A stretch of DNA of 64,000 bases from Octopus vulgaris (lineage: Eukaryota): positions 18,538,001-18,602,000 of the forward strand of contig OX597834.1 in NCBI GenBank assembly GCA_951406725.2, written 5' to 3'. This document shows positions 3,544 through 56,547 of this stretch, in pieces. Within the stretch, counting starts at the first letter, position 1. Every line of letters starts with the position of its first letter. Made by a program: the position numbers and the translations under genes. The notes under the pieces are model-generated. The model did no database searches. It saw only the letters and a list, made by a program, of their open reading frames with translations, and was not told the origin of the DNA.

Positions 3544-3621
3544 CTGTGCCAGAAGACATTCCACCTTGATCAAAATTATAGGATTTTATTTCATCGTACC
3601 AATTGTCTGTAGCATTTTGAC
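3544..3621 (-). CDS. GLIPR2: GLIPR2/GAPR-1-like CAP protein, internal coding exon (78 nt)
   Basis: tttcttcag|GTCAAAAT...GGCACAG|gtagga, encoding (G)QNATDNWYDEIKSYNFDQGGMSSGT(G). Has the CAP WYxE motif; phase 1-1. Confidence 0.92.
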
Positions 3622-3734: not shown

Positions 3735-4865
3735 GACTTATTGAAGAATCAAAAGCATTTAATCGCGATCTTGCAACGGTGTTTGTAGACTTTTCTAAAG
3801 CGTTCGACTCTGTAGATAGATACAAGATGTTTGAAATCCTTAAGCTCTATGGGATACCAGACAAAATCATTTCTGCCATCAAGGTCCTCTACACAGATAC
3901 GTCTTCAACCATCCTAACCCCTGACGGAGAAACATCATCTTTCTCAATCAAAGCCGGAATACTGCAGGGAGACACACTCGCCCCTTTTCTCTTCATCATT
4001 GTCGTTGACTATGTGCTACGTATGTCAGTTGATACCATTTCTGGCAAGGGCTTTGAAATAAAACCAAGAAGAAGTTCCAGACACCCAGCTGAATACTTGA
4101 CAGACACTGACTTTGCTGACGACATTGCTCTTATCAGTGATTCTCCAATGCCCAGTCTCTTTTACAATCTCTCGAACAAGCCTCAAATTGTGTAGGTCTT
4201 TTCCTCAATGAGGCCAAGACTGAATATATAAACGAGTGCCTGTCCAACAGTGATTGCATCATCCATACTCTCAACAATGCGCCCTTAAATATAGTTTCTG
4301 ATTACAAATATCTTGGGTCATACATATCATCATCTGGAAAAGATTTTCTAACTAGAAAGGGTATGGCCTGGTCAGCCTGTAATGACATGCATAAGATCTA
4401 GTCATCAAATCTAAGTAGAGACTTCAAACTTGAAATCTTCAAAGCCACAGTCGAACCAATTCTACTATATGGCTCAGAAACCTAGATGTTATCAAAGAAG
4501 CTTGAGAGGCGGTTGGATGGAACCTACACTCGCCTCCTTATGAGAGCTCAAAATCTCTCGTGGAAGCGTCATCCAACCAAAATGCAAATATATGGGAAAC
4601 CACCTGTGTCATCTCTTGTGAAAGGTAGAAGAGTCCAGTTTGCTGGACATTGTTGTAGAGCTGAAAACGAGGCAATTTCTACTCTTCTCCTCTGGAAGCC
4701 ATCTGTTCACAATACGAGAGGGCGCACACTCTCCTACCCTGATGTAATCTCCAGAGATACAGGTATCCAGCAACAGAACCTCTGTAATGCTATGATGGAC
4801 CGTGAAGCCTGGCGTAGCATGGTAAATTCCATTGTCTCGACCACGGTCAAAACAATGATGATGAT
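3735..4865 (+). mobile_element. 5'-truncated RTE-clade LINE (reverse transcriptase pseudogene) in a GLIPR2 intron, antisense to the gene
   Basis: FVDFSKAFDS, GILQGDTLAPFLF, DFADD, YKYLGS and LLYGSET motifs, with a frameshift and stops; (ATG)n 3' tail. Confidence 0.92.
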
Positions 4866-5834
4866 TTCTGTTTATTTTTAAATGTATCAAAAAATTGCCC
4901 TGCATCTAATGCCGTATTACAGACAAGGGACCAAATATTGTAAGTTAGGGAACTAAACAAGCATAGGTTCACTAAGTGCAATAATTCTTAATATTAAAAT
5001 AAAGAAAACGAGTCAAAATATAGTTTCTGGGCACAAGCATAACATGAAATTGCTTACAATACACTGACATTTATATGGAGAAGTCGCATCATCTCGTTAT
5101 ACCTCCTTCGTCAGTATGCAAAACCTACAGCTGATATATGACATTATTTAATGGCTGTGTTACCTTTAAGAGGCATTTAAAAAAATTATCTAAATAGAAA
5201 ACCCTCCTTGAAAGCTGGAAAGAAGCTTAAACTTTCATCCATCTGTCAATTATTTGCAATGAGTGGATGACAGCAAAACCAAAACATTGGTGCTCCACCC
5301 AGGTGGTTGATTGTGGTAACACAAAACATCACAACCAGAAGTAGGAGTTTTACATCCGGTGTGGGAATTCTCTCGACCAAAATATAAACATTTATACAGC
5401 TGAACTGAAAAAAGATAAAGATGAAATGCAACATCCCCATAGTTTTCCCCTACAAACTTATTACCACACAGGCATGGATGCATAGTAAGAAGTTTGCTTC
5501 CCAACCACATGGTTCCAAGTTCAATCCCACACCACAATGAAGAGCTGTAATGGATGAATGGAAATATTTTAGAGAGAATATGTTCATAAAACCCCTTTAT
5601 CTGGATGATTTTTCAATTTAAAAAAAAATTTTTTTATTTTATCTAGTTTCAGCTCACGAGCTGTGGCCATGCTGGGGCACCGCCATGTGAACTTATTTTA
5701 TCATACAATCTTAATCATAGACTGTTTTTATTTATCCCTAAGCTCCCTCACTCCATTGGTCAAGGGCTCTGATTCTCCTAACTTTTGGGCTTAAAAAAAA
5801 AAAGACAAGTAAAGGCAAAATAGCAAACACTGAC

Positions 5835-6153
5835 CTGTCAGAACTTCCCCATCGGATGTCCATTTGTAAGCGACATTCTCACCAACACTTTCTCCGTTCA
5901 GCTTGCAAGGACTGTGTTTTAAGGTCTTAATGGAAGCCAGATGATCGGCCCACTTCTGAGCCATCTCACACAGATCTTTAGACATCTTCAAGGTTGGCAC
6001 ACCGTGTTTGGCACGGTAACGGTTATGGGCTTTCAAAGCTGAGTCTTCGAGTTCCTTCTTTTGTTTTGCAGGTGAAACTTTGGTATCTTTTTTCGTCTTG
6101 TCCTTGGAAGGCACCGCGGAGATGGTTTCTGTGCGTGAGTGAATACAACCCAT
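5835..6153 (-). CDS. GLIPR2: GLIPR2/GAPR-1-like CAP protein, first coding exon of the 183-aa form (exon acceptor at 6249)
   Basis: MGCIHS...ALKAHNRYRAKHGVPTLK...AQKWADHLA...LKHSP...GENVAY...LTG, donor CAG|gtcagt. The three exons sum to 552 nt (183 aa plus stop). Acceptor ttattttgcag at 6250-6251. Confidence 0.92.
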
Positions 6154-7893
6154 ATCGTAAGTAGGGGTCCTACGTTCAAAAAGGGATTTCGATTCCGAAT
6201 TGGGAACTTTCTTGATTGATACAACTTGATTTCCACTTGGGATGCAAAACTGCAAAATAAATACAAATTTATTTGTAATTGGTCAGAGTTTTGATGATGG
6301 TTAAACGGAATTAAAATGGTGTTTTGGTCATTTTGTCAGAACAACACTTTTTATTTTATTTTACATCATGGTAGATTTTGCGTAAACCATCCCCAACGTT
6401 TTGTAAGTTGCTCCCTGTATTCCACCTTCAACCGTTTCCCTTGTAGCACATAAAGAAATCATCGATGTTATTGTATGTTATTGTTGTCTGAGCTCGGATT
6501 AAAAACAGAAACGGTTGACCTTCACAGCTCCTCAGAGATTTTGCGAGATCATTACAATTGATGCTTTTGAACGAAGTTGACGACTGCAAGAAACAAACAA
6601 ACAAACACACACACACACACTTTGAAAGAACAGTTCGACCCAATAAGTGAGCAATGTGAATATTAACCATCAACGTAGGTCACCAACAAAGTAGAGAAAA
6701 GAAAATCAATTTCAGCATTCTGACTTTGAAATGAAAGTCAGACGGTAAACTTTCTACATAGCAATGAGATCGATATAGAAAGCTTAGTGAGAAATATTTG
6801 TCCACATATGGTTATTGTTGGCGTTTAGCCACAGGTCATCTGTCGAGCAGATCTATTCCAACTGTCGCCATCAGTTTGTTTTGGAGATTTACATGTTTGG
6901 AAGATTTGAGGGAGATTTAGTTGCTATTTTTAGCAAAGAGAACGACCTTGTAGAGGCTCCCTAGTTGGCTTGTCTGTTCACTGAATCAAAAGATCAAAAG
7001 TAGAGGCGTAGTTAGATGTTGTGCGACACAACATCTAACTTTTGAATTTACCGACTTCCCCCGAGACCCCAATCCCGTTCAGGCTTATTTAGTATATCGA
7101 AAAGGATCGCCCTTGTAAAGCGACGCCAAGGCGGACCGCACCTAACATCCCACTGCTATCGACGCTGCTGATCAAAAGTTACGATCATCCCGTCATAACT
7201 TGTGATTGCTCTAGATCAGTCGTTTTTGTTTTAAGTAACTCTTCTGTGATGAAAATGTTATGGAAGAGTTGTAGGCACTAGCATACGTTACTGGAGTTAA
7301 ACCTGTATAGGTTTGAGGGTCTGGGTTGAAGGGGCGGCACACACTTTTGCTACGTCACTGAAGATTTGTTGAATATTTTTTTAGCAGAAAATAGAGTGAG
7401 AACTTTGAAATCGCAATATGGATTTCCAAAATCGCAGTTGCATTATAGATTCGCAAAACTGCAGTAACAGCTGTTCCAGGTACAGACTACGAGAAACAGC
7501 AGTTATGGCCTGAAGACAAAGCAATAACAGTAGTTTATCACAGCAGCAGCTGCGTTAGCGCTTTGAATAGAAAAAGCAGATGTCTAATGAGAGCAACTGG
7601 AATGCCATCAATGGTTTAAAGAGGGAATCGTGATTTAATACTGAAAAACCATTAAATTCCCCGAGAGAATTAGTTAAACCTCGTTGAGATCAACGTCCAC
7701 TTTCGTGAATGTTATAATATAAATTAGTAAAACCTATAATCAGGCTAATGAGCTTGGAAACAAATGACAAATTATATAATACTAGGTTTCGGCAGATTTC
7801 TGAAATGGACAGATGGTCACGAATGGAGGGTGTGACTGTTTTGGACGCTGGTGATCTGAAACGGTTCACTGAACAATGAGCCTATATAGGAGA

Positions 7894-8082
7894 CAGGCCC
7901 GTCGCCAGACTTTGGTGTCTGGGAGTGCTTTAAAATGTTCTGGGTGGGCACTGATTTGTAATAATGCTCAAGTGGAGTTTCGAAATAAGGGTATCACTGT
8001 AAATCTGAGGGTGCAATCATTGAATAGTAGGGGGTGAGGTGCGGTGTCGTCAAGTGCACCCCACCCCTTAGCGACGTGTGTG
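7894..8082. mobile_element. Degenerate hAT-like MITE
   Basis: Termini CAGGCCCGTCGC and GCGACGTGTGTG are imperfect inverted repeats. No clear TSD. Confidence 0.4.
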
Positions 8083-8509
8083 GTTGGCAACAGTGCTTTT
8101 TGGCAATAGAGGCAAATATGCATGCGCGCAGAACTAGAGAATTGGAGGGGTGGGTACAGGGAATGAGAGAAACAAAACGTCTGATGTGAAATAAGCTAGC
8201 GTCGAATCAATGGCGTCAAAGAGGCTGCGCCGAAACGTCTCGTACAGCAAAAGTAAATGGTGTGATTAAAGAAATATTACGAAAAATACATTTTACTGCG
8301 TCGAAAACAAATATTCTAAAACCAATTTAGATATCCCACCGCTGTCACAATATAATTTTAAAGGCGGTGCTCCAGCATGGCCACAGTCAAATGACTGAAA
8401 CAAGTAAAAGATAATAAAAGATTATACTTGCTGCGGCCATCTACTTTTGTTTTCAAGAGAGAGAGAAAGGGAGATAGAGAAAGAGAACAGAAATACCAGC
8501 AAGAAGGTT

Positions 8510-8829
8510 AAAAGAGTAGTGAATGCCAAACTGGCACTCCGTCGGTTACGACGAGGGTTCCACTTGATCCGATCAACGGTACAGCCTGCTCGTGAAATTA
8601 ATGTGTAAGTGGCTGAGCACTCCACAGACACACACACCGTAGTTCTCACGGAGATTCATCGTGACAAGGCTGGCCCCTTTGAAATACAGGTACAACTCAT
8701 TTTTGCCAGCTGAGTGGACGGGAGCAACGTGAAATAAAATGTCTTGCTCAAGGACACAACGTGCTGGGTATCGAACTCGTGACCATACGATCACCAGCCA
8801 GATACGCTAATCACTAAGCCACGCGCCCT
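8510..8829 (-). mobile_element. tRNA-derived SINE family D (CORE-like)
   Basis: Minus-strand head GGGCGCGTGGCTTAGTG...GAGTTCGATACC, then GTGTCCTTGAGCAAGACA. Related copies at about 36085-36310 (+), 36380-36540 (-) and 30340-30670 (+). Confidence 0.7.
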
Positions 8830-9169
8830 CACAGTCAATACCAAAGGAAAGGGGTTAACATTTCGGACCCAGTCCGATGATCGGGAATGCGAATTTAACC
8901 TTTTAGTCTGTACTCTATATACATTCGCTGTACTCTGCCAAGTAAAGAGCATTAAGTACAGTAAGAAAGGGAACCTGCATCGCTGAATATGGATAAGTAT
9001 CTCGGAGGAAATTTCCATCAAAAACATCCACATACTCTGGTGTGGGCGTGGGGTGGCGGGGGATGATGTTGCGCCGGGTACGAATATGAAATGGGGTTTG
9101 GTTGTCATAGTAAGCTGTTGCCTCAATAACGCATATCCCCCCACCACAAACGTAGTTTCCCCCACCCCC

Positions 9170-9392
9170 CCTCTCTCTCTGTTTCGCACACGAATTCAGC
9201 TCGTTCCAGTATGAAAAGTTTAAATCTTTTAATGTGGGTGGAGAGAGAGAGAAAGAGAGCGAGAGAGAAAGAGAGCGAGAGAGAAAGAGAGCGAGAGAAA
9301 GAGAGCGAGAGAAAGAGAGAGAGAAAGAAAGCGAGAGAGAGAAAGAGAGAGAGAAAGAAAGAGAGAGAGAAAGAGAGAGGAGGAGGGAGGGA
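9170..9392. repeat. Compound (GA)n microsatellite
   Basis: GA/GAAA/GAGC tract. Confidence 0.95.
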
Positions 9393-10011
9393 GACCGAGC
9401 AAACTCGAACAATTTCTCGAAGTATCAGAGCGAAACATTTCCTCCAGCTGTATGGCGAATGAATTTAAAAGATTCCATTTTATTTGTCGGAGTCGGTTAA
9501 ATGTAGCAAATCACTCATGAATCATAGCGAGGAGGGAGGGGAGGGGGAATGGGGCGAAGTAGGCTAATGTACTTAGGTATGAAGCGGGTAACCAGTGTTG
9601 AAGTATCTTGGTAAGAGGCGGGGGTGGGGCAGAGATTAACTCCCCCCTCCCGCCTCAGTGGGGTGTCATTTATATAACACCCGAATTAATGATAATTCCA
9701 TGTAATCTCCGAGAAACAGAGATAACAGGAACCCAGAGGAGCAACAGAATAAAACCTTTGCTTCAGTACATACATACACAGTTTGTTTTTATGTTCAATT
9801 ATAACCCTTTCTACTACAAAGTTGCTGTATAATGAAAAGCTGAAAATTTCCCCAAGATCATATCTCTAATATATATATGAGGAATCACGTTAAAGGTCGA
9901 TAAAATAAATACCAGTCAATGACTGAGTTGATTTTAAAATTCTATTTTCAATTCTTTGAAAGTTCGATGTCTTATACCGAAAACAATATCCGTTGACCAA
10001 TATTACATAAC

Positions 10012-10280
10012 TATTTCTTTATTACCCATTAACGGGCTACATAGAAGGGACAAAACAATCACGAATGATTAATACATAAATGTGTTTCTGGGGTCTGTTT
10101 AAAAATTGAATGATAAATAAAAGTTCGAATGATGAAACAATTACATTTAAACAAATTTACAAATGTAGTGGGGCGGGTCTACGGACCCCACGCTCCCCGC
10201 CACGACACTTAACCTTGTGTTTTTTTCCGGCCTATCTCGCAGTTGTGAGGGACCATTTATTCACCGCATTTTTCCACCTT
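10012..10280 (-). mobile_element. Putative LINE 3' UTR sharing the SINE-B long tail
   Basis: Homologous in opposite orientation to 57740-58006. The minus strand ends ...TGGGTAATAAAGAAATA, like SINE family B. Confidence 0.6.
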
Positions 10281-10769
10281 TCATTAAACACTTTCTTACT
10301 CAGACTCCTCCTCTCTAGTTCTATTTGCCTTTTCAGGTGGAATTTAAAATATTCCACCAGTCGTCGTCGAGAGAATTTGTAACGAAGTTTGGGGAGCAAT
10401 TCTTAATTTGTGTCAGTGAATCGTTCTCAACATTGATAGACTTTTCCCTGTCGTTTCAGGTGTTTTTAATATGAAACCCCGCACGATTTAAGTTATAAAT
10501 CCAGTCATTCAATAGGACAGAATGTGTTAAGATGTAGCCCAATATAAAGGTGAAATATAATCCATGAAACATCAATCAACTATCTAATCCTCAACTTAAA
10601 AATAATTACATTAAGGTTCATTATCAGTTGATGGATATCTCTGCTAACACAAAATTTAAGCACTTGATTCTATTAATCCTTAATGGTACGTAAATATCAA
10701 AACACTGTTATCACAGGGATTTTGGTTCCAAAACGCAATAACAAATGAACCAGTGATAAAAACGAATCA

Positions 10770-10985
10770 TCTCCATGCATTTCGGAAATGGAACGAATGG
10801 TAGATTCATTGACGCCAAACTTGCAGCCGACAGCGTCGAAGCTGCCACCATCGCATATTTCCTCAATCACTTCTACTTATTTTTTCTGTCGAGAATACAA
10901 TCGTCTGCGTCGTTCAGTAGGATCAAACGCCTTCCTATTGTTTTGGTTCACTAGTCCCTTGACGATAGGCAAAGTTGGTCATGGT
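10770..10985 (-). pseudogene. pogo/Tigger-type transposase N-terminal HTH remnant
   Basis: Minus-strand translation VEVIEEICDGGSFDAVGCKFGVNESTIRSI resembles the CENP-B/psq HTH. Disrupted by a stop. Confidence 0.55.
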
Positions 10986-11559
10986 GGACGCAGATGCACA
11001 ACCGTGGTGCAGTCTCAAACCACGGTTGAGAAAACACAAGCGATAGTCAATACATTCTGGGTAGCTGAGCATTGGGCGATCGCTGGGGAGCGTTTTTGCT
11101 GCTCAAGTAGAATCTTCGACTAATCGCCGACCCATGTTATCCCAAATCAATCCGTAATAAGCGTGACACGGCTCACAATTGTTATCCTGGATCAGTGATG
11201 AATGAGTAAGTGATAAAGTAAGCTACATATTGTATAGAAAAAAGCTGTAATATTAGCAGTAGCAAACGTACGCCAAGGACATTGCTAGTGAAAAGTCAGT
11301 TAATTTATATACATTCTGTTCTCGTAAATTATAACTGGTAAAATCGATTGTCTTGTCTAAGTGCCTTCTTGTTGCTGTTGCATTTGGATCAATTCACAAA
11401 TCTGTGCTTACAATCCTGTTTCAATTTCCAGTTGAGGTTCTTACTTTTGACTCGTGTAATTTTTTCTCAAACAGACGGTTTTGGCACGTTTCATGCAACG
11501 TGTGTTCTTTTCAGTCTTGAAATGAAATGCAAGCCAAGTAAATTGAATACTCAATAGCG

Positions 11560-12730
11560 TTCAGTACCAGTAAAAACTGGGGGCACATGGTATCGACTAA
11601 CATCCTTCTTTCTCAAATTGATGACTTTGAACCTAGATCAGAAGTGGCAGAATCGTTAGTATGCCGGACAAAATGCTTAGCGGTATTTCGTCCACCTGCA
11701 TGTTGTGAGCTTCGCAGGGGCAGTCTCTGCCTTTCATTCTTTCGGGATCAATTAAATAAGTACTTATTGAGTAGAGGCGTCGATGTAATCGACTTATCCC
11801 CTTCCCCCCCAAAATTGCTGGCTTTGTGCCAAAATTCGAAAACATTATTATTATGGTGATGGATTGTCAGAACCGTTAGAGAGTCTGATAAAACGCGTTG
11901 TGGCATTTTCTCGGACTCTTTGCGTTATTAAGTGAAATCCCACCACGGCCAACCTTGCTGATCATCCTTCCGGAATTGATAAAATAACATACCTAAAAAG
12001 TTGATGTAATCAACGAACCCACTCCACTCGAAACAATGTTGCATTTGTGGCAAATAAAAGAAATAATAATAATAATAATAATAATCATTATTATGGCGGC
12101 GAGCTGGCAGAATCGTTAGCACGATAGACGAAACGCTTAGTGGTACTTCGCTCGTCGCTACCTTCAGAGTTCAAATTCCGCTGAGGTTCACTTTGTCTTT
12201 CATCTTTTCGGGGTTGATAAATTAAGTACCAGTCGTACACTGGAGTCGATGTAATCGACTTATCTTCTTCACCAAAACTGCTGCCCTTGTGGCAAAATTT
12301 GAAACCATTATCAATATCAAGTCGGCGAGCTGGCACAATCATTAGCACGCTGGACAAAATGCTTTGCGGTATTTCGTCTGCTGTTACGTTCTGAGTTCAA
12401 ATTCCGCCGAGGTCGACTTTGCCTTTCATCCTTTCGGGGTCGATTAAATAAGTACCAGTTACGCACTGGGTTCGATATAATCGACTTAATCCGTTTGTCT
12501 GTCCTTGTTTGTCCCCTCTGTGTTTAGCCCCTTGTGGGTAGTAAAGAAATAGGTATTTCGTCTGCCGCCACGTTCTGAGTTCAAGTTTCGCCGAGGTCGA
12601 CTTTGCCTGTCATCTTTTCGGGTTCGATAAATTAAGTACCAGTGGAGTACTGAGGTCGATGTAATCGACTTAACCTCCTCCCGCAAACTTCAGGCTTTGT
12701 GCCTTAAATAAAAAGGATTACTACTCTTAT
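11560..12730 (+). mobile_element. Head-to-tail array of about 6 SINE family B copies (Meta-SINE-like core)
   Basis: Repeated GGCGAGCTGGCAGAATCGTTAGCAC...GAGTTCAAATTCC...GGTCGACTTTGCCTTTCATCCTTTCGGGGTCGATAAA...AGTACC, separated by (ATT)n/(AAT)n tails. Confidence 0.85.
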
Positions 12731-13379
12731 TATTGCCGTCGTGTTGTAGCGGTGAATATTGGCAGTCATATTTATTTGTCAAAGCACAGCTGCTTTCTCG
12801 CCCATTTTCAAATTGATGTCTATCTTCCACGCCTTACTCGATCGACCCACTTCAGGTTTAGATAAAACTGTTGACATTAATTACTGTTTTTCTCCGACTG
12901 TAAGAAACACGAGTTCGTTTCACTGCTCGTGATACTTTTCGTCTTTTCCCCTTTAATCTTTCATTTTCATGTTACGGCTGTTTAAAAATATTTTTTTTCA
13001 TTACTTGTCCCTCCTCACACACGACATTATACAATAGCCAAATTCAATATTAACTAATCGACTTAAATCATATAATCGTACGAGATTAATAAAATTCTTA
13101 GAGAATATTCTAGGTGCTGAAACGAGACAATGGTGTACTTTAACTGTGTCGCATCTAATAAACTGGCCTCATTAAAGATCATTAAAAATACGACTCGGTG
13201 ATTGCTGATATCAATCTAATCTTCGTATTTAGAGCAGAATATATGCCTCAACGAAATTAAATGTTTACATACACAAATCCAACAGTTTTTGTCCTATACA
13301 ACATCTGTTATTTATGTCAGTGACTTATTGTTAAACTTACTTTATTAGTGAGAAAGTCCAGGGACAGAAAAATGTAGAG

Positions 13380-13716
13380 CGGTGGTTTTCAACTGGGATC
13401 TATATGACTCCTAAAAGAGTTCATATAACATTTTTGGAGATCCACGCAGCAAAATAGTAAATTTGGGATTCACCGCATTTCAAGGACCTTTGAAATATTT
13501 TTTTAAACTTTAAAACAACTATGTTTCTTTCTCTAACATTTTCCATAGTTCAACCTACACAAGTTAATGTATTAAAAGCAAAATAGGAATTTTGAAAGAA
13601 GTTTCTATGAAACTAGTTTTTAAGCATCGAATGGCTTTGGGAGTCCACCAGAATAAAAGAGTAATCAAAGGGGTCCATTGGTTAAAAAAAGAAAAAAAAA
13701 TGGTTGAGAACCGTTG
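13380..13716. mobile_element. hAT-type MITE
   Basis: TIRs CGGTGGTTTTCAAC and GTTGAGAACCGTTG; 8-bp TSD ATGTAGAG/ATGTACAG. Confidence 0.75.
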
Positions 13717-15389
13717 ATGTACAGTGTTAACATTCAAGAAAGAGAATACGAAAATTCAGTGATATTGCAGTTAATAACCGACTTCAACAAGAATAGAAAA
13801 CGTTGACTTACAACTAATTTTATGTTCTCTCTTTACTTGGTAGTTAAGACCTCGTCTGCCTCTCATGTGGCCATTATTACAATCTATGGACATAGACTGG
13901 ACAGTGGAAAGAGTAAAGCATGTCCACAATGCAACACTCCACAATTATTGTATGTATTGTTTATGATCTTAATGTACAGTCTGACCCTTACCCAGACGAA
14001 GATGAGCTAGAGTATCAATACGCCAAGGCCCAAATGCATTATGTTGTCTCGTGAAAGAGGGAGAGAACAAAAGGGAGGGAGAAAGAGAGGGAGAGAGATG
14101 TGTCAATGACATGCGGTAGGGGCGAACGCAATATTTATCACGTGGTTAAAAATCTGGTTAATAGTAATAGATTATTTGGTTGACCTTATTAGAAACGTCG
14201 GCTTTGATTAAAAAAGAAAAAAAAAAAAAAAAAAACGTGCGAGAACCAAAAGAATTAGATCTTCAAATATTATTGGTGCTGCTTCTTTTGACGAATTTAA
14301 TCCTCGTTTTTTCTAATTACAGTTGAAGCAGCTGATAAATCTATCTTTAAACAACTTCTCCCGTTATCAAGGTATTATGATTACAAAATCATGAAAAAAA
14401 AAAAAAGGTTGAATAAATACTTGTCTGTTTTTTGAGATTAAAAACTGGACTACTGAGGGAATTTATAATTCCATGGAACCTTTCTTGGAACATCAAAGAA
14501 CTCCACGAAAGATCACCAAATCTCATCGGCTTTGCAAAGTGATAATAGTAACAGTAGTGCTATGACGGGTGAAAGAGTTGGTGTTTAACCCTTATCAAAG
14601 CAAACCGGTCCTTTCTCTTCTTGCACACAATTGACTTTCCAATGCAATGTACTTTTGTGCATCCAAGGATCGTTTCATAAGTAAGTAATTTTGAAGAATT
14701 AGAAAAAGTGTATATTTTCTAAACAGAATAAAGAGCTGAGGTGAATGCAAAGACTTTCAAATATTCGTTAATATTTATCAAAAAAATATTGCACGTTACT
14801 TGTACTCGGTTTTATTCCAGAAGGTCGTACAGGATTGTCTCAACGGTGACTTGCACTTTTCATATATTTTCCAACTCGACTTCGTCAGAAAATAATGTTT
14901 GCATGGCCTCTTACAAAAAGTCCTTTTATAAAAATTCACTTCGTATTCTTTGCATTTATATCGCCGGACGCAAATAGGCTCAGCGTAGAGTTTAAAGCCG
15001 AAAATATGAGACAGTGTAATCCCAAGGGGGTGAAGTGCCTTCAATACCATCCCTTCTGTTGCAAGCATTCGGGTCAAGTTTCCAGTCTGAGAATAACTTT
15101 TTTCCCTTCTCTTACCCCAACTTTCGACGCCCATTTTTGTGGCGTTCGTTTTTTTTTTTTCTCTTTTAAAAATTAATTGGAAGCAAAAAAAAAACTGAAA
15201 TGACTCATACAATACAGAATGAATAATAAAACAAAATAATGTAAGTCAATTTTGTTTGTGTCGTATGAGTCATTTGAGTGAGTAGTGTCTAAATTAAAAA
15301 CAAAACGAAGAGCATAAGCACTGATGTGTGTGTGAGTGTGTAATATTCGCAATTAAACGAATTCATACTAAAAAAGGCGAAACACTTAC

Positions 15390-15396
15390 CTTACAT
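15390..15396 (-). other. Candidate 7-nt microexon ATGTAAG of the GLIPR2-like gene
   Basis: cttttctattatgcag|ATGTAAG|gtaagtg: good acceptor and consensus donor. Confidence 0.45.
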
Positions 15397-15665
15397 CTGC
15401 ATAATAGAAAAGAAACGGTAACACACATACACACAACTAAAACATTACGAAAATAATGCTTCTATTTTCACCGAAATGTGTCTAATCTGTCCTACATTTG
15501 ATAGACGAGTTCATAATCAATAAAAAAAAGTTCTGTCAGAGACGGCTTAACAGGAATGTAACGAGTGTTTGTTTCCACAACCCCCACCACACACACACTA
15601 CTGGAGTTGATAGTATACCAGACTCACCACCAAAAGAACGGTGGTTCGTGTTCAAGTCGACTTAC

Positions 15666-15745
15666 CTTCAAATGGTTTCGTCAACAAATTTCCAATTCCT
15701 CAATCGTACACGAACAACAATTCATTGCTGTCAGCACGACAGCTG
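15666..15745 (-). other. Candidate non-coding 5' exon of the GLIPR2-like gene
   Basis: Consensus donor GAAG|gtaagtc at 15666/15665. The 5' boundary is uncertain. Confidence 0.35.
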
Positions 15746-16776
15746 TTAGTTGGGTAAATCTTACGTTTTAAGCTAGGTATTGGCGAATTGCCAATACCTA
15801 AAATCTTATGGGGTTGCACCTGGGATCACAGGTGTGATATTTGATTCCACAAATTTATACATATGAAACGGGTGTAAAATAACTATTTTGGTCTTAAAAT
15901 TTGTTTCTACAACACACACACAGCTACAGGAGTCACGAACTACAGCGCATTAGATTTCGTGTCTCAGTGGATCTAGATTTGATAACTCAGATTTCTACCT
16001 TCAAATATTGTTGTTTTGTCCCCTCATATCATACCTTAGCGTATTAACGATATCTGAGAGGTGAAATGATATCTACTGAGAACTGAAACCATATCATCAC
16101 ATTGGAAGTGATTATGCTGACAAAATTTCTACATTTTCGAAAAATCTAAACAAAACTTTATTTGTGCAGAATGGTGCCAAATTTTATCAACAAATCTGTC
16201 ATGTTTATCGTCTGCACGACAATCCCCACCCCCTGAACATGCAATTTAATTGAAATATTCAGTTTATCTTCAAAACTTTCGTAAACACCCTTGCAAGTAT
16301 TCACTGTCATCTATAATATACATGTTCGGTTACTGACTTTCAAATATAAATTATTTCCCTAAACAAACGTAGACTGCCTATCATACAGACAATGTTTACA
16401 ATAAAATATTTAAAACCTATTTTCAGCTTTGCTGCAAAAATAATTTGACTGAAATTACTCCTCCAAATATTTTAGGCAAACCACAAGGCGAGAGCTTACT
16501 GGTTCAGTTTTCCAACTGAAGAGTCAATAAACTCGTGAAACATGGAGAGATATTTTGTCTCTGTGCTCTTCCGAAAACTTTTAGAGTGTACTTTCAACAT
16601 CGTGGAATATCACAAATATTGACCCAAGATTTCTCATATTGAGATACTTGGTAAACACGCTGCAATGTTAGGTTTTATTTCATATAATTTGCACCCTAGA
16701 TGGAGGTGGGGTAGATTGGTCCAGCCCGCGCAACGCTTTTGAGGATGACATTTTTGGGCTTGCAGTACAAACAAAC

Positions 16777-16871
16777 CTATCTGGGGGCACGAAGTCCTGG
16801 AGGAGGCGAGCAGCAAACTCAAGGGCTACCGCGGGCGGAAAACACCTAAGCTTTTCGACTGTGTGCACCAT
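16777..16871 (-). CDS. Candidate alternative first coding exon (MVHTVEKLRCFPPAVALEFAARLLQDFVPPD)
   Basis: GC-rich unique island with an ATG, 95 nt open, donor AG|gtttgt. Phase 2 is compatible with the 7-nt microexon and the 6249 acceptor. Confidence 0.4.
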
Positions 16872-26766: not shown

Positions 26767-27057
26767 TTATTGATTTTGTTCGTTATCGATTGAGTTTGTT
26801 TTCTCCAAAGTTCCTTCGTGGAATCGACGGGTCATCTCGCATAAATCCTCCTGCATTTTCTGCATCTGCTGTTCCAGGAGAAACAGGTCAGCGCTCGCAG
26901 AATCGTTCGAGTGCGTTGGCGGCGGTGGCATCTTACTGAACGTATCGTCCACAAAACTACCCATTTTGTCGGGTCCCCACATTGGAATGGCATCCGGATT
27001 GATCGGAGACGTTTGAAAGGGCTTAGGGTCGGCAGCAGAAAGTGTTGTAGTATTGTC
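26767..27057 (-). CDS. Terminal coding exon of an unidentified gene
   Basis: Acceptor catgttttag, then 96 codons DNTTTLSAADPKPFQTSPINPDAIPMWGPDK...DLFLLEQQMQKMQEDLCEMTRRFHEG...NQ*. Coding-like, GC-richer island with a C-terminal coiled-coil-like segment. Confidence 0.65.
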   Translation of the reverse strand, partial: DNTTTLSAADPKPFQTSPINPDAIPMWGPDKMGSFVDDTFSKMPPPPTHSNDSASADLFLLEQQMQKMQEDLCEMTRRFHEGTLEKTNSIDNEQNQ

Positions 27058-34699: not shown

Positions 34700-35228
34700 C
34701 AGGGGTTGGACAAAATAAAGGAAACACCTAACATCATAATTTTGAAATATCTATAAAACCGTCAAAAGCTTGTTTATTTTTATGGTCCATGATTTATTAT
34801 TAGTGTTGCTTAATATGTTTTGCTAAAATTGCTTTTTCTTTTCAGATATCATCAGAAAAAGTTAATTAAAATTCATTAAAATGACAGATCTATTAGACTT
34901 TCAAAGACGTCAAATTATTGGTGCACGTATGGCAGGCGCTAGTGTAACGGAAACAGCCGAAATGTTTGGTGTATCAAGAAGTACTGTTTCGAATGTAATG
35001 ACAGCCTTTGAGAAAAAGGAAAAAAAAACCTCCTCGTCGAGACAAAACTCTGGGAGAAAACCAAAACTTTCAGACAGGGACCGTCGGACTCTTACGCGAA
35101 TTGTTAGAAAGGATCACAAAAGCACAGCTCCCCAAATTACTGCAGAGCGTAATGACCACCTCGAGAACCCTGTTTCCACAAAAACTGTTCGCCAGGAGCT
35201 GCACAAAACCGATTTTCAATGGGGATGA
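34700..35228 (+). mobile_element. Tc1-like transposon left end with N-terminal transposase (paired HTH) fragment
   Basis: TIR CAGGGGTTGGACAAAATAA. ORF 34881-35228 MTDLLDFQRRQIIGARMAGASVTETAEMFGVSRSTVS...GRKPKLSDRDRRTL...VSTKTVRQELHK is truncated before the DDE domain. Confidence 0.9.
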
Positions 35229-55050: not shown

Positions 55051-56547
55051 ACCGTGGTTTATAAATTTGCCTTTTGCTTTTTTTTCTTTTTTTTTATAAT
55101 TTGTATTATCATTAATATATCAACTTATAAATAAGTATGTATTGAAAGTAAGGAAATGTTTGTTTGACTTACCTAGGAAATAGAAAACCGTTTAATTTCG
55201 TTGATATGGAATGAAAAACGGACCGGCTTAAAGTAAGGCACTAAACTCCACTTGCGGAAAAGGAGGAATTAGAAATTTATACACAGACAGACAGATAAGA
55301 TTTCTGAGAAACGAGAAAAGCGAAGCCGATAGCACCAAGGACGGAAGTTTTAATAATTGTCACAGGGAGCGAAGCAAGATCTCTTTCTTTTTTTCTTCCT
55401 TTTTGTGTATCTCTCTGCGGCTCTCCTCCTTCTCTTTGGCTCATACACTCTCTTCTACAAATGTATATACATACATATATATATATACACACAGATGGAT
55501 ATTGTATGCTTCTCGACGGTGAACCAGCTGTCACTGCTGCTGCTACTGCTGTGTTATTCTCTCCTCCCCCCCACCTCATCCACTTATGTCATGTTGGCAA
55601 TAAAACTTACTTCTCTCACACACACACACACAGAAACACAATCACTTTAGTTCACACAGAAACACATACACACACACACACACACACACACCTATAGTAT
55701 AGATACATTGCCACCTTAGCTCTCTCTCTTTCTCACACAGCATACACACACACACACAGACACACACACACACACACACAGTATTGCAAAGACACCTTGG
55801 CTCACACGCACACACACACATACACACACATTTACATCATATACACACATCCACACGCACAAACACATATACACACACTATCGCAAAGACACAGCCATAT
55901 TAGCTCTCTCCCTCTCTCTCTCACACACACGCACACACACTCATACTTACACATAGACAGTTATACACACACTATCTTCTCTCTATCTCTCACACACACA
56001 CATGCACACGCACTGACACATACTTGCACAAATACATACACGCCTTATGCCCCCCCTCTCTCTCTCATACACACACACACACTATCCCCCCCCCCAAAAT
56101 CCATCCAGTCACTCATGACTGCCACCAAATCTATGACAACAAACATTTCCTTCTTTTTCTTTGTCTTTTTCTTCTCTTCCACCACTCTCTCTATCTATCT
56201 ATCTCTCTCTCTCCCACCTCTCTCTCTCTCTCTCCGCGACTGGGTTCGTAAGCAATGTATTTGTTGGAGTGTGGGCCTGAAGATGATAGGCAGAACGGGG
56301 AGTGTTAAGGAAAGATGTGAGCAGTTGTGAAGCGATGTTTTAAAAGTAGAGCATGTTCCACGTACCCCGGTACCCGCAATACCTACGTAACTTTATACAT
56401 AATCTAATATCTTCAATTTTTAACTTTTTTTCTCTCTCTGCTGGCACTGTGACACTATGTCGTCTGGTTCTAAACCAAGCATGCAACCATAGAACCTAGA
56501 ACAAACTAGGGATATACATACATACATATGCATATATATATATAAAT

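Follow-up and report, generated by a model that had tools for sequence, protein, structure and literature searches.

Does a GAPR-1-like gene of Octopus vulgaris switch between a lipid-anchored and an unanchored product by changing what is spliced ahead of the sequence MGCIHS? An earlier note on this locus had proposed such a switch through a first exon at 16871-16777 and a 7-nt microexon. We re-examined the window (64,000 nt of contig OX597834.1; all positions refer to this stretch) together with public proteins and, around the acceptor at 6249, with the RNA contigs of four runs (X4, X7, X13, and X19), which were taken as spliced RNA from their own junctions and which omit rare variants.

A GAPR-1-like gene with a shared coding exon

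The gene product is GAPR-1-like and carries a PF00188 CAP domain (80-82 bits, Pfam cutoff 21.1) with the GAPR-1 fold; its best PDB matches, by sequence as well as by fold, are GAPR-1 (human, E 2.8e-45; target TM 0.91). The shared exon 3 (Table 1) is spanned entirely by a single contig in each of the four runs and matches CAI9738262.1 with 100% identity over 138 aa, and the proteins P0012 and P0013 could be rebuilt exactly from genomic exons. The ATG of the MGC frame has G at both -3 and +4, and the 96 nt that precede it in the exon contain no ATG at all. A paralog that lacks the MGC motif is located 144 kb from the gene.

Table 1. Gene features and exon candidates in the window
Feature	Position	Strand	Description
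Exon 3 (shared)	5835..6249	-	Acceptor 6249, then 32 open codons and the MGCIHS ATG at 6153; includes first half of CAP domain
Dual-use segment	6154..6249	-	Coding linker after exon E; predicted 5' UTR after exon F
Exon 4, CAP domain	3544..3621	-	Matched by loose ends at 5831 in X4, X13, X19
Exon 5, coding part and stop codon	1078..1232	-	Translation equals the P0013 tail
Exon F	55173..55441	-	Donor TAG/GTAAGT at 55173; span is the ATG-free stretch, not a mapped 5' end
Exon G (candidate)	26767..27057	-	96-codon frame ending in a stop, phase fits exon E
Microexon candidate	15390..15396	-	ATGTAAG, donor 9/9; no RNA support in four runs
First exon candidate of the earlier note	16777..16871	-	No support; single copy

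Exon E gives rise to long isoforms with a buried Gly2

In all four runs, spliced RNA contigs join the acceptor at 6249 to exon E, a 48-nt, phase-0 coding exon located 72 kb upstream and 14 kb past the window edge. The loose ends at this acceptor in X13 and X19 are exon E, and an X13 contig crosses the whole of exon E unbranched, without an extra junction contig (depth residue -0.1). The same exon is used by 12 of the 14 public Octopus proteins of the gene, through which the 6154..6249 segment is translated. Annotated long isoforms (268-391 aa) arise from distal first exons, arranged as A-B-C-E and D-E and located 14-71 kb beyond the window, and they carry MGCIHS internally, at residue 86-208. 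Alternative 5' ends are several: one 364-aa protein is common to three accessions and one 366-aa protein to another three. A coding role of the segment in N-terminally extended isoforms that bury Gly2 is supported by these data.

The entries CAI9738261-64 (O. vulgaris), XP_029649147/8 (O. sinensis), and XP_052831532-5 (O. bimaculoides), at 268-391 aa, all represent this gene; their models already include the 96-nt frame and an internal MGCIHS, whereas none contains the microexon and none is the spliced 183-aa form predicted from exon F. In the long form, residues 46-156 may form a beta-meander (predicted at pLDDT 47-74), which resembles only generic sheets among known folds (Z <= 7.2). Residues 14-175 gave no usable match in the ESM Atlas. 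A protein search with residues 1-215 returned only the gene's own cluster among 216 candidates, in a search insensitive enough to miss even the Argonauta protein.

Exon F is a likely second partner of the shared exon

A second partner at acceptor 6249 was decoded as exon F in two of the four runs, X4 and X7, from a two-contig consensus under an inferred tie rule rather than from a single contig. Among 675 donors, 55173 combined with exon E is the only pair that explains this consensus (30/30), whereas joins through the microexon account for 13-16 of the 30 letters. An equal reading emerges from the agreement value, for which a mix of E and F predicts 0.567 and 0.57 was observed. X19 also has a second branch at this acceptor, with partner letters that are not among the rows listed, and X13 lacks the F junction although its exon 3 depth exceeds that of X7. 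On the unique decoding in two of four runs, exon F is likely spliced to the shared exon.

The exon F sequence is single copy. Its terminal TAG creates, at the junction, an in-frame stop ahead of the MGC frame, and the 269 nt before 55173 are free of ATG, a run reached at 2.4% of positions. The short form predicted from the MGC ATG comprises 183 aa, as the earlier note had stated, and begins with MGCIHSR. Met-Gly-x-x-x-Ser at the N-terminus is the consensus of the myristoylation motif, and the predicted short form matches it. This spliced 183-aa protein is absent among the 14 Octopus cluster members. In our view, a short isoform that begins at MGC is probably made. A TATA-like word at 55281 offers a hint, and only that, of an exon F promoter.

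The most serious competing explanation is that 55173 marks a recursive (ratchet) site or the end of a 131-nt poison exon, in which case the F junction would be a splicing intermediate or an NMD substrate, and the short form would owe its origin to a different leader or to internal initiation. In long introns of Drosophila, ratchet points consist of an acceptor and a donor in tandem (PMC8605326), and a tandem pair of this kind is present at 55173, where a pyrimidine tract runs into TAG/GTAAGT within a 72-kb intron; only 6% of AGs have such a tract. A candidate internal acceptor at 55303 (14/16 pyrimidines) would delimit the poison exon. Against both versions, the site behaves like the end of an ordinary exon in that sequence upstream of 55173 is linked to exon 3, and the loose ends are long (medians 255 and 184). 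The ATG-free run fits a 5' UTR, the junction is missing from X13 despite its depth, and the same tandem motif also occurs once in antisense and once in control DNA. We regard this explanation as unlikely.

A proposed acylation switch

Our preferred reading, which we hold to be reasonably probable, is that the shared exon takes exon E, giving long forms with MGCIHS buried, and likely also exon F, giving a 183-aa form predicted to be myristoylated. Joining of exon E at 6249 places MGCIHS inside the long isoforms, while joining of exon F would have translation begin at MGCIHS, since TAG lies at the junction and no ATG precedes it for 269 nt. If exon F is, as we infer, an alternative first exon driven by a separate promoter, promoter choice would set the N-terminus. 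The short form is predicted to be myristoylated on Gly2, perhaps palmitoylated on Cys3, and held at the membrane in a fixed orientation; the long forms would escape co-translational myristoylation at the buried Gly2 and bind membranes loosely or be soluble. As in Hck or KChIP1, the choice of N-terminus likely switches acylation. The 7-nt microexon and the 16871 exon have no detectable part in it. Of the switch put forward in the earlier note, the long forms with buried Gly2 and, probably, the short MGC form stand, whereas the route through the microexon and the 16871 exon is not supported. Exon E lay outside the window available to that note, and exon F at 55173 was overlooked.

The 7-nt microexon is a strong-looking but unobserved splice motif

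The pieces of the earlier route lie and read as claimed: 16871-16777 (95 nt, 31 codons plus AG, then GT), 15396-15390 (flanked by a pyrimidine-rich CAG and GTAAGT), and 6249-6154 (96 nt, no stops, continuous with the frame of the 6153 ATG). Together with 3621-3544 and 1232-1078, they form a 249-aa ORF without internal stops. The splice sites around the microexon candidate look strong, with 13/16 pyrimidines plus CAG at the acceptor, and its sequence is single copy. With a loose filter, two such motifs were found against 2.3 +/- 1.7 in 30 shuffles, which is chance level; with a stricter filter, chosen after seeing the motif, two were found against a mean of 0.07 in 60 shuffles. Neither the antisense strand of 184 kb nor 200 kb of flanking sequence, scanned on both strands, contains the strict motif. 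Three perfect donors (15390, 15666, and 17403) cluster in essentially single-copy DNA, and 16 CpG fall in the 300 nt at 16777, near the 90th percentile.

Other features point away from use. The junction 15390-6249 was seen in none of the four runs, whose contigs omit rare variants; exon E, and in two runs exon F, occupies the acceptor instead. Neither the microexon nor the 16871 N-terminus occurs in any of the 14 public Octopus proteins of the gene, and a weak protein search for a separate 89-286-aa cluster gave only the paralog among 15 candidates. Neural microexons of the Srrm4/eMIC type have a length that is a multiple of 3 and an intronic UGC upstream. The present candidate has 7 nt and no separate upstream UGC; neither UGC nor CTRAY lies within 80 nt upstream, save a TGC overlapping the acceptor itself. 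The microexon phase is matched equally well by 42 ATG-to-donor frames that are 25 codons or longer, and the 16871 exon is just one of them; its donor at 16777 agrees with 6/9 consensus positions and is equalled by 530 GT sites of the intron, and T is found at -3 of its ATG. Its peptide has no match in Pfam. As for the open 96 nt at 6249-6154, 21.6% of stretches of that length in the intron are also stop-free.

The donor at 15390 might be real and serve another purpose, either as part of an AUG-UAA start-stop or poison microexon after E or F, or as a proximal first-exon end in a promoter cluster at 15.4-17.4 kb. The microexon indeed reads Met-stop after exon E, and the donor clustering, the rarity of the strict motif, and the several alternative 5' ends of the gene fit such a role. 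It nevertheless requires the 15390-6249 junction, absent from all four runs, and the donor word has a background in control DNA; we consider this use improbable. AG/GTAAGT occurs eight times in sense and never in antisense, and this strand bias was set aside as proof of extra exons, weakened by six copies in a 400-kb control strand and by two in-gene copies that lie in repeats.

A context-dependent microexon would restore the frame after a phase-2 first exon (249 aa), introduce a stop after E, and form a start-stop uORF ahead of the MGC codon after F; were this long shot true, a switch between acylated and non-acylated GAPR-1 that is common to coleoids would be tuned by one microexon. A genuine 249-aa isoform built from 16871-16777 and the microexon, be it scarce or confined to some tissue, is, despite the compatible frame, the rare strict motif, the clustered donors, and the CpG content, highly improbable given the missing junction, the missing proteins, the ordinary first exon, and the chance-level loose test. 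Unless reads support it, the claim of a microexon should go no further.

Conservation of the MGC motif

The motif MGC[IV]xS is kept in Octopus, in Argonauta, and in a cuttlefish cluster. Four of the five cuttlefish members begin with it (80 contigs), starts that could reflect contig ends. Ahead of MGC, gene models, which require open frames, have 33 open codons in cuttlefish and 37 in Argonauta. Since the motif depends on a free N-terminus, its retention suggests a short form. A caspase cut at the Asp before MGC was dismissed as an alternative: the cuttlefish residue is Asn, and such a cut would leave Met rather than Gly at the new N-terminus.

Comparison with known acylation variants

Human GAPR-1/GLIPR2 (PDB 1smb, 4aiw), like the octopus protein, has a single intracellular-type CAP domain (51% identity in the fold alignment) and, like the octopus short form, an N-terminal Met-Gly motif. 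According to excerpts of a study of the human protein (PMC13690689), in which the term "isoform" does not appear, myristate anchors and orients it and it is not palmitoylated; the octopus form differs by Cys3 and a longer charged linker, and its long isoforms are extended by as many as 206 residues, among which a beta-meander is predicted. The functional gap between anchored and unanchored forms may be modest, because human G2A GAPR-1 is still active on beclin 1 condensates (excerpts of PMC13690689).

The principle has precedents, each described here from excerpts of the cited study. In Hck p59/p61, a Met-Gly-Cys motif is N-terminal in the short form, and an in-frame form longer by 21 residues has a different acylation and location (PMC4599235). 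Both Hck forms arise from one mRNA through two start codons, and the longer one keeps its myristoylation, whereas the octopus gene would choose between upstream exons and its long forms are without Gly2. Variant N-termini likewise decide acylation and membrane binding in KChIP1a/b (PMC3973911) and in the sperm hexokinase HK1S (PMC4736023); there the motif belongs to the variant-specific N-terminus, whereas the octopus motif is part of the shared exon and would be either exposed or buried. The intracellular CAP protein SmVAL6 of Schistosoma has splice isoforms in membrane or cytosolic fractions (PMC7957364), although there the splicing affects the region 3' to the CAP domain, and palmitoylation is predicted.

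No published isoform report for the octopus gene was found in the literature on GLIPR2/GAPR-1, cephalopod CAP splicing, and octopus microexons. Since Hck, KChIP1, and HK1S already illustrate the principle and databases already contain the long forms, the gain is modest: one unannotated-looking exon (F) and a testable switch are new. Our analysis suggests that the short form, probably of the ancestral type, is missing from public Octopus models. Acylation governs the location and oligomerisation of GAPR-1, which ties it to mammalian autophagy control, and the octopus gene, in which the choice of upstream exon would expose or bury the same motif, would allow anchored and unanchored GAPR-1 to be compared in a natural setting.

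A candidate alternative last exon

In the X13 and X19 contigs, which omit rare variants, exon E does not branch at its 3' end. Exon G has no match in Pfam, and an ESM Atlas lead (0.77) was rejected. Exon G is 64% identical to residues 176-244 of Argonauta P0004 and, judged from its sequence, is a candidate alternative last exon that would yield a form without the CAP domain.

Splicing through exon E

The GAPR-1-like gene is spliced through exon E into long reading frames. Its exon 3 matches Octopus vulgaris CAI9738262.1 with full identity, and 12 of the 14 members of the corresponding cluster, all of which we examined, reach the acceptor at window position 6249 through exon E, a 16-residue exon that ends in DQDRK. 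The sources of these twelve are three annotated Octopus species and Logan records; the remaining two are unspliced exon-3 frames. Joined by coordinates, the exons give exactly the long Octopus proteins P0012 (268 aa) and P0013 (389 aa). Exon E is in phase 0 at both ends, so that the microexon proposed in the earlier note is not needed; exon E followed by that microexon would read Met-stop.

RNA contigs of four out of 20 runs (X4, X7, X13 and X19, from four studies) were compared over window 5600-7000, and these runs count as spliced because exon 4 sequence follows in the loose ends at 5831. The letters at the acceptor are those of exon E in X13 and X19; the X13 contig is unbranched through all 48 nt of the exon, with no further junction contig, and a second branch is present in X19. 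In X4 and X7 the acceptor is covered by two contigs per run, which give the same mixed consensus (agreement 0.57). Only one pair among the gene's 675 donors, exon E with the donor at 55173, explains 30/30 consensus letters under an inferred rule of alphabetical tie-breaking, with an expected agreement of 0.567 versus 0.57 printed; joins through the microexon account for 13-16 of the 30.

Features of the gene and of the window, G000:C21:18538001-18602000 (window numbering unless a contig is named)
Feature	Position	Strand	Observation
Exon A	from 135106 (beyond window)	-	joined exons rebuild P0012/P0013
Exon B	102830-102642 (beyond window)	-	joined exons rebuild P0012/P0013
Exon C	100103-99871 (beyond window)	-	joined exons rebuild P0012/P0013
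Exon D	from 89311 (beyond window)	-	joined exons rebuild P0012/P0013
Exon E	78372-78325 (beyond window)	-	joined exons rebuild P0012/P0013
Exons B-C region	G000:C21:18637865-18640864		loci L006, L007
Exon G	27057-26767	-	96-codon frame
Perfect AAG/GTAAGT donors	17403, 15666, 15390	-	inside 2 kb
Second microexon-like motif	17411-17403	-	9 nt, frame-preserving
Repeat with AG/GTAAGT donor	44931; 121379 (beyond window)		two copies
Tandem paralog	G000:C21:18683863-18688263		loci L002, L008, L010
Further CAP-domain genes	G000:C21:2258564-2267951; G000:C1:105093568-105119524
Reverse-transcriptase-like frames	3737-4881	+	broken
Transposase-like frame	34866-35228	+	one frame

Exon F and a putative acylation switch

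Exon F, whose donor is the one at 55173, ends in TAG/GTAAGT; this TAG falls in the reading frame of exon 3 and places a stop exactly at the junction. The 269 nt upstream of this end are ATG-free (such a run occurs at 2.4% of gene positions), as are the 96 nt between the acceptor and the MGC codon, which has G at -3 and +4. A transcript from exon F would therefore start at MGCIHSR. Exon F, whose region is single copy and which carries a TATA-like word, would serve as a first exon joined to the acceptor, selected by promoter choice. The main rival is that 55173 is a ratchet point of recursive splicing, which it resembles (PMC8605326), or part of an internal exon, for which there is an acceptor candidate at 55303.

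We consider an acylation switch by a route other than the microexon moderately likely to be real. By the known myristoylation consensus, Gly2 of the short form starting in this way is predicted to be myristoylated, and Cys3 palmitoylation is possible. The 389-aa form has its best matches in human GAPR-1; its model has a confident CAP domain, a tentative beta-meander and a low-confidence linker (residues 156-230, pLDDT <50) that contains the buried motif. In the human protein, orientation at the membrane and the formation of condensates are fixed by myristate, and the G2A mutant still affects beclin 1 (PMC13690689); the long forms would therefore be redistributed rather than inactive. N-terminal variants similarly determine acylation or membrane binding in Hck p59/p61 (PMC4599235), KChIP1 (PMC3973911) and HK1S (PMC4736023), as do splice variants in SmVAL6 (PMC7957364), and alternative first exons are common (PMC13082882). 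Our literature search found no paper on isoforms of this gene; bioRxiv 10.64898/2026.09.05.749416 covers O. bimaculoides, and its supplements may list octopus microexons.

The proposed microexon route

The earlier note had joined an exon at 16871-16777 through a 7-nt microexon, ATGTAAG (15396-15390), to the 96 nt before ATG 6153. Its coordinates and frames are right and give an uninterrupted ORF of 249 aa, with a length of 183 aa for the MGC form. Without the microexon, the 16871 frame (103 codons) is out of frame and crosses the MGC codon. The ORF and the open 96 nt are not far from chance expectation, because a 96-nt stretch of the intron is free of stops in 21.6% of cases, and the microexon is preceded by 42 ATG-to-donor frames of equally compatible phase. 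The 15390-6249 junction appeared in none of the four runs (contigs over 5600-7000, which drop rare variants), and neither the proposed N-terminus nor a spliced 183-aa form occurs among the 14 cluster proteins. The interpretation in the earlier note is thus partly supported: a long/short switch is likely, via exons E and F, but the route through the microexon and the 16871 exon is not supported, and we regard the microexon isoform as very improbable.

UGC is a feature of neural microexons. Under a loose filter, the microexon motif was found twice versus 2.3 ± 1.7, that is, at chance; under a strict, post hoc filter it was found twice versus 0.07 in shuffles and never in controls. AG/GTAAGT occurs eight times in sense and never in antisense within the gene, versus 6 per 400 kb of strand in flanking control DNA. 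The eight comprise three real donors (A, C and F), two in repeats and a cluster of three in essentially single-copy DNA. The microexon site may be used rarely, and nothing links it to the 16871 exon. The repeat copies have 87 (44931) and 16 (121379) blastn matches in 384 kb, and this donor-bearing dispersed repeat is a possible source of new exons.

Conservation and neighbouring features

The MGC[IV]xS motif is shared with Argonauta and with a cuttlefish cluster, in which four of five members begin with it (short starts could be contig ends); the fifth, modelled in Sepia pharaonis, carries 33 open codons, the first Phe, ahead of the motif. In the gene models, which are predictions, the motif is preceded by 32 open codons in this gene, compared with 33 for O. 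bimaculoides and 37 for Argonauta. Because the motif and the preceding open frames recur in Argonauta and cuttlefish, both uses of the 96-nt segment look old among coleoids. Among 149 further representatives, 21 have a Met-Gly start and four the full motif. A tandem paralog 144 kb away, adjoining the gene's distal first exon just upstream, lacks the MGC motif and shares 64% identity over exon 3.

The region encoded by exons B-C is Thr/Ser-rich, with a predicted five-strand beta-meander, and is kept in Argonauta; Thr-rich N-terminal segments also occur in several of the other matched CAP proteins from invertebrates. The acceptor of exon G is phase-compatible with exon E, and the exon has a stop at its end; it may serve as the last exon of a form that lacks the CAP domain. 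It gave no Pfam match and no usable Atlas match, and shares 64% identity with an internal segment of the Argonauta model. Reverse-transcriptase-like frames, which we take from their motifs to be LINE-type, lie in the intron that separates exons 3 and 4, and a further frame resembles a Tc1/mariner transposase N-terminus.
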